A stretch of DNA of 64,000 bases from Protoeuglena noctilucae (Eukaryota): NCBI GenBank assembly GCA_958009085.1, contig OY253681.1, positions 620,001-684,000 of the forward strand. The letters run 5' to 3'. The position numbers were made by a program, and so were the translations under genes. Position 1 is the stretch's first letter. Each line of letters begins with the position of its first letter. The notes below the pieces were generated by a model. The model had not been told where the DNA came from and searched no databases. It saw nothing but the letters and a program-made list of their open reading frames with translations. Below, piece after piece: positions 2,091-22,560 of the stretch.

Positions 2091-4531
<2,441 letters not shown>

Positions 4532-5128
4532 TATATACCCTATACAGGGCAGGGCGACACAATGACCTCGTTGCGCTGGCACGATGGCGATGTCTGCCAT
4601 GCTGGCTACTAGATTTGAACGCCGGCATTCTGCTGACGAATTATTGACTCTCACTCCTGCGTCCGGCGCCTCCCCACCTCGCGGATACGTCCTGGAGACC
4701 ATACTTAACCATACTTAATTATCAGGTGAAGCGCAGAAACACCTCAAGTCCCCGCAGGTATGCGTGTCCAACCAGCTTGCTAGCACGCATCCCATGTTTC
4801 AGCTCGCGTTGTGCATGCAGATTGTCCGACCGCGCACGAAGGAGACGAAGGGGCTTGTCCATGCACGGCAGTCATCGATTTGCGCTGAAAGCTCAGTGCT
4901 TGTGACGAGCTCTCATGGAATCACCACGTGTGAACGTGGGGGCCGTGGAGCGCAGGTGTGTGCGGGCCATCGGCGCAACTTTCCTGCCGTCTGGGTCGAT
5001 CCATTGACATGGCCCGCCAATCGCATCCATCGAGCCGCAGATCGCCGAGCGCGACTCATCGTGGACGCCGCTTTCTGCCGCTGTTCGTGTCGGGGGGGCA
5101 GCGGGAAAAGAGCCGCAGCGCCGCCAGG

Positions 5129-5548
5129 ATGCCCACGAGTTTGCCATCGGCGTTGACAAATCCCGTCCTGGGATGGTTCAGCGTGGCCGTCGGGGGGGCC
5201 GTCGGTGCTGTGGCGCGCTACGGAGTGAGCATGGCCTTCGACCCGTGGCTTCAGCTGTTCCCCTTCGGCACGCTGGTCTGCAACGTGATTGGGAGCTTTG
5301 TGATCGGCATCGGCGCGGGCGTCTGGAAGCAGGAGGCCCGCAAGACCTTCTACGCCCTGTTCTTAATGACGGGGTTCTGCGGTGGCTTCACGACCTTCAG
5401 CACGTTCAGCCTGCAGACGCTGGACCTGATCATGAAGAACAAGTGGGGCCGAGCCTTTGCTAACATGGTCGGTTCCGTGGCGGTCTGCATCCTCTTTACC
5501 TTCTTTGGCATGCTCATAGGCGACGCGATACGCGAAGCAGGGTCTTAG
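5129..5548 (+). CDS. crcB: Fluoride channel Fluc/CrcB, single domain, CDS without introns (139 aa)
   Basis: GGAVGAVARY, FPFGTLVCNVIGSFVIG and TGFCGGFTTFSTFSLQT are canonical Fluc motifs. There are four hydrophobic helices. ATG 5129, TAG 5546-5548. Confidence 0.95.
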   Translation: MPTSLPSALTNPVLGWFSVAVGGAVGAVARYGVSMAFDPWLQLFPFGTLVCNVIGSFVIGIGAGVWKQEARKTFYALFLMTGFCGGFTTFSTFSLQTLDLIMKNKWGRAFANMVGSVAVCILFTFFGMLIGDAIREAGS

Positions 5549-5583
5549 TTCAAAGTGAAGCCACAACACAAAGTCACACGCCT

Positions 5584-8500
5584 CTACCGCTTGCGGCGCA
5601 TCGCCCGCACCGGTGGCTTTGCAGCGCCCAAAGTGAAGCCCCCTTGCCCACCAAACGCCCCGGAATTCCCCGTCTGACTGTCGGACTGAGCGGGCCCGCC
5701 CTGGCCAAACGGCCCGCCCGGCTGCCCCATCGCAGCACCCGCCCCGAAGGCGAACCCCCCGTTGGGCGCGCCAAAGCCCGGAGCTGCTGCGGGGGCACCC
5801 GCGCCGGACTGCGGGCCACCGGGCGCCTGCTGCTGCTGCCCGAACTGTGGCGCTGCGGCACCAGGGGCAGCAGAGCTGAAAGCGTTGGTAGCAGACGCAA
5901 AGCCGAACGGCCCCGCAGGAGCAATGGCCCCGAATGGCCCTGTCGAGGCGGCTGCGCCAAACGGCGCTGTGGAGGCAGTCGCCCAGAACGGCCCCGCAGG
6001 AGCAGTGGCTGCGACCGACGAAGACGACACGGCGGGGGCCGAGGTCGCAGCTGAGCCAAAGCCAAAGGGGTTCGACGCCGGCGCGGGTGCCGATGCGGCA
6101 CCGAAGGGGCCCGCGGAGCTGGCCGGCGGTGCCGTGCTGGACGACCCAAAGCCCGCGAACGCCGGGAAGGACGGCGCCGGCGCACTGGACTGGCCCAGCT
6201 GCAGCTGCGTGGAGCCTGCCCCCCCGAACACGAACGGCGTCGTGGCCTGGTTGCCGTACAGGCCCCCGGAGACCGCAGGCTGCGAGGTCGAGGCCGTGCT
6301 TGCCCCGAACACGAAGGGCGTGGACGAGGCAGACGCAGAGCCGAAAGAGAAGCCCGTTCCGGACCCTGGCGCCGCCCCGGAGGCGCTGGCAGCTGGGGCG
6401 CCGAACGCGAAGCTTGGCGCACTGCCCGAGGACCCAGGCGCTGCCGCCAACACACAAAGACCGGGCGGCGCCTCCTTCCCGGACGCGCCAGCTGCCGACG
6501 CGAGCCCCGCAGATGCCGCGGGGGCGGCCCCACAGGTGAAGGGCTGAGAGGCGGCCGCCGAGGATGCGCCAAAGGAGAACACCGGGGCAGAAGTCGTCTG
6601 GGGTGCAGACGCAGACGGGGCGCCAAACGAGAAAGCGCCCGCGCTCCCGGCAGCGGTGCCCCCGACGGCGAACGGCGACGAGGGCGCCTGCGAAGCGCTG
6701 GCAGCGGTCCCGGCACCGAAGGGCGCAAGGGACGCGCCCGTGCCGTTCGAGGTGCTGTTGGTTCCGGACCCAAAGACGCCAGCGGAAGCCCCGAATGCGA
6801 AGGCGGGCGCTGCGGCGGACGACGCCGACCCCGAGGCGACGCCGCCTGACGACCCGAAGCCAACTCCACCCGTCGACGCTGCCCCAAAGCTGACACCGCC
6901 CGTCGATGCGGACCCAAAGCTGATGCCGCCGGTCGATGCTGACCCAAAGCTGATGCCGCCGGTGGACGCTGACCCGAAGCAAATGCCGCCCGTCGATGCT
7001 GACCCAAGAGACGGACCCGTGGCCGTGGCCGGCTGGGATGCTCCAAAGACCGGTGCGGATGCCGTGGTTCCGGCAGAGGTGGCCCCGAACTGGAAGCCCC
7101 CAGCTGCTGCCGCGCCAGACGTCGCCCCAAAAGAGAAAATGCCAACGGAAGGGCCGGAGGTGCCCCCGGTCGGTGCGGCAGAGGACGTGGGGCCCGACGG
7201 GGACGGGCCTTGCGACGCCGCCGTTGCCGACCCCGCCTGGCTCGCCGGGAACGCGAACGCTGTCGTCAAGGGGGCTCCCGTGCCGAATTGGAAGCCCCCG
7301 GGAGCCGCGGAGGACCCGGCGGGTGCAGCGCCAAACGTGAACGCCTGCGCCGTGGATGGACCAGCAGTGGAGGTCGCCGGCGCAGATGTGGAAGCGGCTC
7401 CGGGACCAAACCCAAAGAGGTTGCCGCCCGCAGGTCGCTGCGGCTCGGTTGCCGGCGTGGTTTGGACGCCCCCGGTGGTGGCTGCGGTGGCCGCGGCCGT
7501 CGACGTGCTCGTCTGGGGCTGGGACGTGACGGCGGGAGCAGCGGCGGTGGCTGGAGCCCCGAACGAGATTGAAGGTGGTTGCGACGCGGGTTGGTCAGAC
7601 AATAGGCGAGCCTGCAGGGCATCAAGTGGAGGCGGACACATGAGGGCTCATCAAGATGCTCGACACACGCAACCCATCCGGTGCTGATATGCGCAACGTA
7701 CAAACGATCGCGGCGGACCATCTCCGAGAGCACTGCACCATGCAAGGCCCTTCCAAGCACAGATGCATGTGCATCTCACCTCGGCCACTCCCGCCGTCCC
7801 CTTGGTCCCGGCTTGCTCGCCAGCGGGGCCTTCTTTCCGCCCTTCCTGCTGCGTCCCGGTGGCGGCTGCGGCCTTGGCGCCACCAAAGCTGAAGGTTGTC
7901 GCGGGCGCGCCTGCACTGGCCCCGAACGTGAAAGTGGACGTCGACGCTCCCGACGCTGCCGAGGCCGCGCCGAACATGAAGGAGCTTGCCGCAGGGGCGG
8001 AACTTGACGCAGGGGCAGGCGTGGATGCAGGGACGGCCCCGGACGCCGATGCGAACGAAAGCGGCGGTGCCCGGGCCGCCCCACGGTCGTCCGCTTCCGC
8101 GTCGCGGGCGGCGGGAGCCTCGATGCTTCGCCGCGCGTCGTCGCCGAAGCGGAACCGCGGCGGCTTGTCGAGCGGCGACGGCGCCACTCCCGCCGTGGCC
8201 CGCGCCACCGCTGCGTCCTCCGGGGTGGCCTCCCTGGCAAAGCTGAACGAGGGGCGCTGAGCCATTGAAGGGCCCGCGTCCTCTTCCGACTGCAGGAGAG
8301 CGCAGATGCGGGCCGAGGGTGAGCTGCATGGGGTGAGGCGACCCCACCGCAGGATCGGCGTTGCAACGATGACTTGACCCTCAGCACAGGCATCTTAAGC
8401 CACGGCTGAGATACATGCCGTCCACCCACCTCGCCATCGGCACTGATGCTGCCGCTGTCGTCCTTGTCCCCACTGGGCGTCCCCGACCCCGTCCCACCTC

Positions 8501-20971: not shown

Positions 20972-22157
20972 TTACACCCCCATAAAAGAGGGTCCCGCAA
21001 CGCGCGGCTTCGACGTGCAGACGTCCTGACCCTGGCACTCGAGCTTGAGGTCGTCGGTGATGAACTTGACGCCGCGGCCGAACTCAGCCTCGTTCTCGCA
21101 GCCCAGGAAGTTGAAAGGGAACCTGTGGGACGGAAGGGCAAGAGGAGTGGTACGCCTGTTAACCACAGCATACCCTCTCATCTGTGCGATGCAAGGCTGC
21201 AAGTGGCTCACTTGCAGGTGCCGTCCGTGACCGTGCGAGAGCGGGCGAAGTTGGCGTACGACGTGTACAGGCGCTTCTGTGGCAACGAAGGGGAAGACGA
21301 CGTGCGTGAGACTAGCCAAGTCAGCTAGCCCTACTTGCCCAGGCTTCGTGAACTACCCCTGCTTGTCCAGGCGTGCTCTTTGATGCTCACCTTGTCGTTC
21401 AGCTCCTTGTTGGCCTGCGTCTTGGCCAGGAGGTCCGACTCGAGCGAAGCGAACGCGGGCGTGGCGTTCAGGAGCACCAGCGCGGCGGCCGCGGCGGCGA
21501 AGGAGGCCTTGCCGGCATCGGCACGGGCAACCTGCGCGGATGGCACGCAATGGGGCCGCGTCGGGGGCCCGCCAATCGCCCAACGCGCACCACGTGGCTT
21601 CCCGTAGCCACTATGGCTCCTAGCTGAAGCACTGGCCCTGATGACCACCTCTGACCATTGCTTGCGTTTGCAGCCTCGCAGCGGAACCGTTCGCGGCCCC
21701 ATCAAGCGGGCCGGGGACCCCCGCGCACGCGATTTGGCCAGCCTGGCCATGCAAGCCCCCGGGGCGCCTGGCGACGAGACAAGGGGCGCGATGTGCGCGA
21801 AACGGGAACACTCGACCAAAGAATGAGCCCGGGCCCGCGTCTCACGCCCGGCGGTCGAGGAGAGATCATCGTCCGAGCGGGACGGATTCGCGAGCTCCAG
21901 GTGGGGCCCCGCGCGGCGCAGGGCTGCAGCGCCACCCAACGTGATCGGAAAAACGCTGGCGGCAGGAAACCGACGGGCCTGGCGCCGGGGCGGGCGACAT
22001 CGGGGCACCGAATCTGCGCGGCCCCGTCGTTGGGGGCGCGCGCGACGAGATGACATGCACATCGTTCGCGATCTGAAACGCATGGCGGCGTGCTCACCAC
22101 GCGGGCCCGGGTGGTCTTCGCCTGCACGGCGGGGGGGACACGGGAAGCGCAGATCAT
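20972..22157 (-). CDS. PSAN: Photosystem I reaction centre subunit N, 4 exons
   Basis: MICASRVPPAVQAKTTRARV|VARADAGKASFAAAAAALVLLNATPAFA (bipartite transit peptide, AxA cleavage) SLESDLLAKTQANKELNDK|KRLYTSYANFARSRTVTDGTCK|FPFNFLGCENEAEFGRGVKFITDDLKLECQGQDVC..*. The four conserved Cys are present. Confidence 0.93.
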
Positions 22158-22560
22158 CTTTGTTGGGTGGACTGTTGTGCCAGCGCGGGGGTGCTACAAG
22201 GATGCCGGGTCTCTCGGCGAAAGTCCAGCGGCGAGGGCAGTTGGAGACGCTGGGAGACAGGCAACTGGCGCGTCGACGCGCGACGGATCGGCGCGAGGAG
22301 GGGTGTTTTCCACAGCAACCAGCATTCACACGGCGCCTTGTTTGACACACACAAACATGCAAGCGCAGGGAAAAAAGCAAGCAGCAGGACATCATCAGGG
22401 TTCGGCCGTGGAGACGCACTGCCAGCGGAAACGGCAGGATCCTGGAAACGTGAGGAGCTGCCAAAAGGGGCTGAGTAAAGAAGCACGGGCAAGTCAAAGA
22501 GGAAAGGCGCTGGCAGCAGAGCACTATCAACATCATGATGAGCATCAACCCTCACGTGTG

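Follow-up and report, generated by a model that had tools for sequence, protein, structure and literature searches.

How does a single-domain fluoride channel of bacterial type come to lie in a eukaryotic nuclear genome, and could it function there by itself? The question is posed by a 64,000-nt stretch of DNA from Protoeuglena noctilucae (positions 620,001 to 684,000 of contig OY253681.1, assembly GCA_958009085.1), analysed here at its full length and called the window, in which a coding sequence (CDS) of the Fluc/CrcB family occupies positions 5129..5548 on the forward strand (ATG 5129, TAG 5548). According to the available text of PMC3755343, the Fluc genes of eukaryotes without exception code for proteins in which two domains are fused. 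These proteins, called FEX, are single polypeptides with two Fluc domains, a transmembrane (TM) inversion linker and one live pore (PMC3755343, PMC5417652, PMC12808221, each in the portion available), and the same portions of PMC12808221 and PMC5417652 contrast them with the dual-topology Flucs of bacteria, treating the homodimer as the bacterial form. A full-text literature search returned no paper that describes a eukaryotic nuclear gene for a Fluc of one domain; some reviews and the 2013 PNAS paper on FEX were outside its coverage and may mention such a case. Our best reading, which we consider fairly probable, is that the gene is a domesticated horizontal transfer whose product works as a dual-topology homodimeric fluoride channel.

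The family assignment is straightforward. The product of 139 aa plus stop, with four TM helices, scores 101 bits with Pfam CRCB PF02537 (cut-off 32.9; E=5.5e-29), profile positions 2-103 of 103 being aligned, and 94.7 bits with NCBIfam TIGR00494 crcB (cut-off 80.45), and so bears out a preliminary description of the locus, made from the letters and their open reading frames (ORFs), that had called it a 139-aa, four-TM Fluc. Of the solved structures, Fluc-Ec2 (E=8e-14) and Fluc-Bpe (E=6e-11) match it best. Residues 4-120 of Fluc-Ec2 align with residues 15-130 of the window protein. Members of the Fluc/CrcB family have about 120-130 residues, four TM helices and short termini, and the window protein conforms to this layout; its N-terminus is 13 residues longer than in its relatives, and the extra residues are uncharged.

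The window holds one such domain. We built a family hidden Markov model (HMM) from the matches and ran it on all 1363 stop-to-stop frames of at least 20 aa, on both strands of the 64-kb window. The only match was the Fluc frame itself (E=1.2e-47), the next best values (E=8.4-9.8) being noise, so that no second Fluc domain was found in any of these frames, as the preliminary description had also reported from the nearby sequence. The 139-aa protein has no sequence beyond its four helices and thus no TM inversion linker. FEX carries two Fluc domains per polypeptide, whereas here there is a single domain, on an mRNA that reaches no more than 18 nt beyond the stop codon. Rfam gave no match in the window, to a fluoride riboswitch or to any other family, and in the bacterial loci L001 and L002 only tRNAs matched. 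With one domain and no inversion linker the protein is not a FEX; by every sequence test that we ran, it is a Fluc/CrcB family member of the singleton type.

The gene is transcribed, spliced and polyadenylated. Our RNA evidence consists of assembled contigs from four marine metatranscriptome runs of one study (X1-X4), aligned to window positions 3000-7800; from contigs of this kind neither strand nor abundance nor true 5' ends can be read. Runs X1-X4 contain 59-82% of sampled window words, and runs X9-X12 next to none; four further runs, which share one organism label, contain every sampled word and may be the reads behind the assembly. Over the Fluc gene, the listed contig pieces of runs X1-X4 have 0 letters that differ from the window. 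They cover 5036 to 5565 or 5566 without a gap, so the CDS is unbroken and intronless, as had been proposed.

The exact intron borders in the 5' leader were read off the genomic sequence against the RNA joints, and all parts of this transcript lie on the forward strand. Leader exon 1 (4654..4725) contains no ATG; its first position marks how far upstream a contig restricted to the Fluc gene extends (run X2, 69 letters upstream of the joint 4722>4818). Intron 1 (4726..4820, 95 nt, GT..AG) corresponds to that joint with the cut placed 3 letters downstream and is seen in three of the four runs (X1, X2 and X4). Leader exon 2 (4821..4955) carries a 14-codon upstream ORF (uORF; ATG 4861 to TGA 4905) and then ATG 4915, which is in frame with the CDS after splicing. 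Intron 2 (4956..5040, 85 nt, GT..AG), from joint 4950>5036 with the cut 5 letters downstream, is present in 4/4 runs; for the 139-aa form it falls in the 5' leader, and for a possible 182-aa form within codon 14. Exon 3 (5041..5566) comprises 88 nt of leader or possible extension (5041-5128), the CDS and an 18-nt 3' untranslated region (UTR). Poly(A) addition occurs at about 5566, 18 nt past the stop, where a contig of run X3 continues into 19 non-templated A's; this is the one contig in which a tail is seen, and a contig of run X1 stops one base earlier, at 5565.

Two points follow for the architecture. The mRNA ends 18 nt past the stop and its upstream exons contain no Fluc domain; therefore a second domain cannot be spliced on. 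The preliminary description had named a transcript with a second Fluc domain as a result that would overturn it, and neither the RNA contigs nor the HMM scan yield one. The transcript that it had asked to see is present, but its suggested 5'UTR intron at 4758-5127 is contradicted by the contigs, which contain the introns 4726-4820 and 4956-5040 instead.

Composition tells the same story of residence. GC content at third codon positions (GC3) is 0.83 in the CDS and 0.85 in the neighbouring helicase exon, compared with 0.48, 0.52 and 0.78 in three Verrucomicrobiota genes; the window as a whole has a GC content of 0.664. Host-like GC3, two leader introns and a poly(A) tail together indicate long nuclear residence. 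It has become an ordinary nuclear gene: its codon bias is that of the host, its leader has two spliceosomal introns, and its mRNA is polyadenylated and expressed in the sea. Domestication, which had been tied to the single intron 4758-5127, thus stands on other features than the one first proposed.

Where did the gene come from? We compared the protein with 5.8 billion proteins in a word-indexed search and with 1.84 billion representatives in an exhaustive HMMER search. Among the matches listed by the word-indexed search, identity after the window's own cluster is at most 58%, full-length relatives reach at most 55%, and the next matches are proteins of about 125 aa at 47-55%. HMMER gave 19215 matches at E<=0.001, and the two at E<=1e-30 are the window protein itself and P0006, a protein whose cluster members NCBI names Verrucomicrobiia, Verrucomicrobiales or Verrucomicrobiota CrcB. 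In named genomes, the best loci are in three marine Verrucomicrobiota metagenome-assembled genomes (MAGs; 48-53%), followed by Alphaproteobacteria (43-49%) and by Saprospiraceae and other Bacteroidota (33-48%). All of the 80 genome loci kept are bacterial and none is cyanobacterial, and the ESM Atlas returned bacterial FluC clusters only.

Phylogenetic analysis places the window protein within this bacterial diversity. In a quick tree, 53 metagenome proteins were joined by 27 loci from outside the Bacteroidota and by one Bacteroidota locus in four (13 of 53); among its 94 rows the window protein falls in a 39-row clade with a Shimodaira-Hasegawa-like approximate likelihood ratio (SH-aLRT) of 98. 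A more careful tree of 57 rows, after 37 near-duplicate or very long rows had been dropped from the 94, puts it in a 24-row clade with an ultrafast bootstrap (UFBoot) of 99 and an SH-aLRT of 91. This clade consists of the 3 marine Verrucomicrobiota MAG loci and 21 unlabelled metagenome proteins, so the bacterial part of the tree first called for returned the window protein among Verrucomicrobiota-type Flucs. Since it is the sole eukaryotic sequence and is nested in bacterial diversity, the transfer would have run from bacterium to alga. Judged from these alignments and trees, we read the gene as probably transferred from some bacterium with a marine Verrucomicrobiota-type Fluc. The earlier suggestion of horizontal transfer is thus supported by the bacterial singleton relatives (47-55%), by the clade at 99/91 and by profile scores that are higher for bacterial Flucs than for FEX.

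Those scores serve as our proxy for FEX, as the trees hold no FEX halves: a profile of the 24-row clade, scored against solved structures, gives 82 bits for the bacterial Flucs (E=3e-22, Ec2) and 45.5 bits for the FEX entry 11wr/9op1 (E=6e-11). FEX itself was absent from the 73 candidates, of 1106, that reached E<=0.001 in a search for longer proteins, which found bacterial CrcB-Usp fusions and forms of 250-290 aa, and from the HMMER search of the 1.84 billion representatives, in which proteins of 274-325 aa with two matching stretches look like bacterial fused forms. The same scores, 45.5 against 82 bits, argue against a fragment of a vertically inherited FEX. This idea, together with a bacterial contaminant or a chimeric assembly, draws on the bacterial likeness of the protein and on its having been found by prokaryotic gene callers in ENA assemblies. 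We consider the whole group of explanations extremely improbable: the RNA contigs, whose study (P1) is not that of the DNA runs (P2), link the gene to a spliced leader and, in X1, also to spliced DDX49 exons; the mRNA has a poly(A) tail; and the composition is host-like. Bacterial contamination in particular is ruled out by the spliced, polyadenylated contigs, which bear out the view, put forward at the outset, that this is no contaminant.

Three further sets of sequences came up in these searches. A virus was considered as vector and rejected: the best of 15 loci on viral contigs has 52% identity over a partial match and the rest have 35-46%, none being closer than the Verrucomicrobiota type. 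A candidate second eukaryotic copy, P0270 (141 aa, on one ENA contig of 3383 nt), was likewise set aside; it has 51% identity and pairs weakly with the window protein (SH-aLRT 52). P0270 shares the stretch KWG.AFAN, and its ORF begins inside TM1 and ends in a 35-residue non-homologous tail, as would happen if a prokaryotic gene caller met a gene split by introns. It may be a second eukaryotic copy or come from a divergent bacterium, as far as its sequence suggests. A metagenome scan with P0270 found nothing above 48% identity, and its one long match, L120, consists of two adjacent bacterial genes rather than of one gene split by introns. Lastly, the metagenome proteins P0177-P0180 (254-288 aa) are, as read by eye, fused two-domain Flucs apparently without a separate inversion linker. 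They have an extra N-terminal copy of TM1, a full four-helix domain and a second domain that begins at TM2; such an eight-helix layout would turn the second domain over with no linker helix needed.

Does the protein retain what a Fluc pore requires? Set beside 31 bacterial relatives, it keeps every invariant column (23 of 23) and every column conserved at >=90% (8 of 8); of the 39 columns invariant in 14 clade members 34 are kept, the changes being L21V, L25V, S27A, R39P and P74F. The available text of PMC3755343 gives the Fluc TM3 motif as GxxGGxTTFSTFxxE. TM3 of the window protein (G82..G85-G86-F-T88-T89-F90-S91-T92-F93-S-L-Q96) follows it in all but the final E, which is Q. Pore and vestibule residues of Bpe are R22, T39, N43, F82, S83, F85, Y104 (or N) and T116, as listed in the accessible part of PMC8315801. 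We mapped them through the Ec2 alignment, with the Ec2-to-Bpe offset taken from the paired numbering in that paper and not from an alignment of our own. Present are R30 (vestibule Arg), T48 (triad Thr), N52 (TM2 Asn), F90 and F93 (Phe box), S91 (invariant Ser), T92 and T124.

Three positions depart from the usual residue. The triad Glu is replaced by Gln (Q96), which is shared by most clade members and, in the accessible part of PMC8315801, is natural in about 5% of homodimeric Flucs. At the Tyr/Asn/Ser position stands N112; an Asn at the equivalent position occurs in about 35% of Flucs (PMC8315801, same part). C120 stands in for the polar-track Ser S110 of Ec2, and Bpe S112A, at the position equivalent to C120, is among the mutants that retain F- permeation (PMC8315801, same part). 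Q96, N112 and C120 are all common to the Verrucomicrobiota-type clade.

A singleton Fluc would have to insert in both orientations, and the charge balance bears on this. Outside the intramembrane R30, the 139-aa form has 4 Lys plus Arg (K+R) on one face (K67, R71 and K72 in loop 2 and the C-terminal R135) and 3 on the other (K103, K105 and R108 in loop 3), which upholds the near balance of basic residues noticed at first sight. The resulting bias of +1 is within the range of -2 to +2 of 31 relatives. Relative to its clade, the protein has lost a loop-1 Arg and one C-terminal Lys and has gained a Lys in loop 3 and one in loop 2; the losses and gains offset each other, so the balance is preserved. 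In the portion of PMC3755343 available, balanced charge goes with singleton, dual-topology Flucs and strong opposite biases go with paired Flucs. Copy number in the bacterial relatives is in keeping with the former: the five Verrucomicrobiota genomes that we searched have a single CRCB match apiece, and at L002 the gene lies between short-chain-dehydrogenase-like and methyltransferase-like ORFs (labelled by eye), with no adjacent second crcB.

Structure prediction with two copies points the same way. It gave an ipSAE of 0.90 (0.89-0.91 in three runs) against 0.00 for the best control and so passed the mark; in calibration, 20 of 30 proteins solved as pairs of one chain also passed it, compared with 1 of 23 solved as single chains. 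The pLDDT of the partner is >=88, and >=98% of contacts agree between runs. In the predicted contacts, TM2 (52-59) runs co-directionally with TM3' (90-95), and so does TM4 (120-125) with TM3' (94-98). Neighbouring helices are antiparallel within a subunit, so co-directional helices between subunits mean that the two subunits are inverted; we infer that the predicted homodimer packs antiparallel. Because Fluc homodimers have already been solved, the pass may reflect likeness to known structures. Dual topology as first proposed thus fits the bias of +1, the single-copy relatives and the predicted antiparallel homodimer, and is still a deduction from these.

The same evidence bears on a fixed-orientation heterodimer, in which the window protein would act alongside a resident FEX or pair with a Fluc of opposite bias from another locus of the same genome. 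Bacterial pairs do exist, as in the adjacent genes of L120 and in L047 and L069, each with more than one CRCB-like ORF; La1/La2 are obligate heterodimers in the available text of PMC3755343; and our second-domain search covered the 64-kb window. Against it stand the singleton-like bias, the single copy in 5/5 of the closest bacterial genomes, the absence of a second domain from the window and the confidently predicted homodimer, and we judge a heterodimer highly unlikely.

Which AUG is used matters more for topology. On the spliced mRNA, modelled from 4654, the AUGs come in the order uORF 4861 (T at -3), ATG 4915 (C at -3, G at +4) and ATG 5129 (A at -3), and there is no ATG between the last two. 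Start at ATG 4915 would add a possible N-terminal extension of 43 codons, encoded by 4915-4955 joined to 5041-5128 on the forward strand and in frame with the CDS once intron 2 is removed, for a total of 182 aa. P0002, a protein of 182 aa called on the 2410-nt Logan RNA contig, equals this spliced reading. The extension is rich in Ser, Ala and Gly and contains 9 Arg, 1 Lys, 3 Glu, 6 Ser and 4 Ala; its helical hydrophobic moment is highest around residues 19-33, and its GC3 of 0.74 lies between that of the leader and introns (0.58-0.61) and that of the CDS (0.83). The open frame is no evidence of coding, since 6694 of the 20000 shuffled versions of these 129 nt were open as well, and among the 149 best of the 1.84 billion representatives none aligns to residues 1-31. 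The 14-codon uORF stops 9 nt before ATG 4915 and may influence the choice of start. If retained, the extension would bring K+R to 14 against 3 and the charges would no longer balance; if cleaved, it would look like an organelle transit peptide.

This raises an alternative in which translation starts at AUG 4915, the extension acts as a cleavable transit peptide, bacterial-type insertases insert the mature four-helix protein from the stroma or matrix with dual topology kept, and the channel vents F- from an alkaline organelle. Alb3/Oxa1 are such insertases of organelles, and an Arg/Ser/Ala-rich composition of this kind is typical of green-algal targeting peptides. In favour are the position of AUG 4915, which precedes AUG 5129 in frame, the 182-aa reading P0002 on an RNA contig, the excess of K+R over Asp plus Glu (10 against 3) with 6 Ser and 4 Ala, and the GC3 of 0.74. 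The frequency of open frames among the shuffles (6694/20000), the lack of any relative aligned to residues 1-31 among the 149 best representatives, the C at -3 of AUG 4915 as opposed to the A at -3 of AUG 5129, and the uORF ending 9 nt before AUG 4915 all speak against it. Reinitiation after a uORF that ends so close would favour the next AUG, 5129. On balance we think an organelle channel possible but rather unlikely. Its fuller form, in which the 182-aa protein is imported into chloroplast or mitochondrion, loses its presequence and builds a dual-topology homodimer in an organelle membrane, is somewhat more doubtful. Leaky scanning or reinitiation at AUG 5129 might then supply a second, non-organellar pool.

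The reading that we favour instead, a domesticated transfer acting as a dual-topology homodimer, would proceed as follows. The singleton Fluc would have reached a marine green-lineage alga from a bacterium that had the marine Verrucomicrobiota type. Given the balance of its positive charges, the 139-aa subunit is expected to insert in both orientations, and two oppositely oriented copies would pair into a double-barrelled, Na+-centred Fluc channel. Through it F- would exit passively, down its electrochemical gradient, from an alkaline, inside-negative compartment, and fluoride-sensitive enzymes would be protected. Passive exit of F- from an alkaline, electrically negative compartment counters the accumulation of the weak acid HF. 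The membrane could be the plasma membrane or an endomembrane for the 139-aa form, or that of an organelle if the 182-aa form is made.

Several observations weigh against this reading. The first long ORF on the mRNA starts at AUG 4915, and a retained extension, with its 10 K+R, would fix the orientation and prevent a homodimer. The Bpe mutant E88Q, with the same change as Q96, conducts less, at about one fifth of wild-type conductance, yet still carries fluoride (PMC8315801, in the part available). In the careful tree the end branch of the window protein is long (0.68) and the order within the 24-row clade is unresolved; with 9 more representatives added, support for the corresponding 27-row clade falls to an SH-aLRT of 85. 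An approximately unbiased (AU) test against placement with an eight-row Acetobacteraceae-type group, picked post hoc, is marginal (12.8 log-likelihood units, p-AU 0.036), and the AU rejection of placement with all 12 Pseudomonadota rows (p=4e-31) is confounded, those rows not being a clade themselves. The Verrucomicrobiota labels of the MAGs hinge on binning. Finally, the gene occurs in one species only, with no match above 58% identity outside the window's own cluster among the matches listed in two protein searches, so that these give no sign of long-term retention across species.

The last point, with the terminal branch of 0.68 and the change of the triad Glu to Gln, could also be taken to mean that the gene is a transcribed neutral passenger, a recent transfer drifting towards loss. 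The ORF is intact, however, and all 23 invariant and 8 near-invariant columns are kept; host-like GC3 and two acquired introns argue for long residence under constraint; RNA is present in 4/4 environmental runs; and the Gln is a natural variant common to most clade members. A neutral passenger is thus just as improbable as the heterodimer, if not slightly more so.

The surroundings of the gene are those of a eukaryotic genome. Upstream on the same strand, 4352..4531 is the last exon, with stop, of a DDX49/DBP8-like DEAD-box helicase gene, which was delimited by RNA joints and three RNA contigs of which end at 4625-4636. This gene has five GT..AG joints (3060>3151, 3238>3331, 3676>3779, 3907>4077 and 4229>4352). 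One source gives the name DDX49/DBP8 to proteins with which an exon of this gene has 50-58% identity; the named relatives of the exon, from Micromonas pusilla and Amborella, have about 50% identity only. In run X1 a single 2410-nt contig (3151-5565) joins the spliced DDX49-like exons, passes the stop at 4531, continues to 4722 and goes on into the Fluc exons, likewise spliced. Runs X2-X4 instead have helicase contigs that end at 4625-4636 and a Fluc-only contig that begins at about 4654. The joint contig would come either from UTRs that overlap, the genome being very compact, or from read-through (bicistronic) transcription.

Downstream, an ORF rich in FG repeats, nucleoporin-like, converges on the Fluc gene from the minus strand (5584..7641), and its RNA contigs reach down to 5548. 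This minus-strand gene has one CT..AC joint (7610>7779). The ORF has no Pfam match, and FG/GFG repeats are the whole basis of the label 'nucleoporin'. The 3' ends of the Fluc and FG-repeat genes probably overlap by about 18 nt (mRNA end at about 5566, contigs to 5548). Of the flanks first described as intron-rich eukaryotic genes, then, both are spliced and the helicase is DDX49/DBP8-like, and the nucleoporin identity goes no further than its repeats. Farther along, an ORF on the minus strand (21331..22545) carries a photosystem I subunit N (PsaN) domain at its C-terminal end (E=2e-5). At 404 aa it is far longer than the domain and probably takes in non-coding or intron sequence. PsaN is restricted to the green lineage. 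The PsaN-domain ORF and the helicase exon with only about 50% identity respectively make the host look like a marine alga of the green lineage and one without a close sequenced relative in the database compared.

If the singleton does work alone, it would offer a natural system for asking whether the insertion machinery of the eukaryotic endoplasmic reticulum or of organelles yields both orientations, and it would test whether the 'primitive' homodimeric state survives in a eukaryote without a FEX-like fusion. The organellar alternative, if true, would give the first organellar fluoride channel together with natural dual-topology biogenesis in a eukaryote. The locus is also a clean, well-documented case of bacterium-to-alga transfer with acquired introns.

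How does the protein compare with known systems? With the paired bacterial Flucs (La1/La2) it shares the domain. Those pairs have strongly and oppositely biased loops and adjacent genes (PMC3755343, in the portion available; adjacent genes also in L120), whereas the window protein has a bias of +1 and the window no second gene. With eukaryotic FEX (Fex1p, FEX-CA; PDB 9op1/11wr) it shares the Fluc fold family and a presumed role in fluoride export in a eukaryote. It differs in having one domain and no linker, and FEX scores 45.5 bits where bacterial Flucs score 82. It is most like the bacterial singleton Flucs (Fluc-Ec2, Fluc-Bpe) in length, four TM helices, TM3 motif, Phe box, vestibule Arg and TM2 Asn, and also in its balanced K+R, its single-copy relatives and its predicted antiparallel homodimer. 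Unlike them, it is encoded by a nuclear eukaryotic gene with a spliced leader, a uORF, a poly(A) tail and no riboswitch in the window, and has 13 (possibly 43 more) extra N-terminal residues; unlike Fluc-Ec2, it has Gln for the triad Glu and Cys120 for S110, both common to the Verrucomicrobiota-type clade. The protein itself is therefore ordinary, and the unexpected part is its eukaryotic host, which is of interest in that a singleton able to work by itself there would require a eukaryotic membrane to support dual-topology biogenesis.

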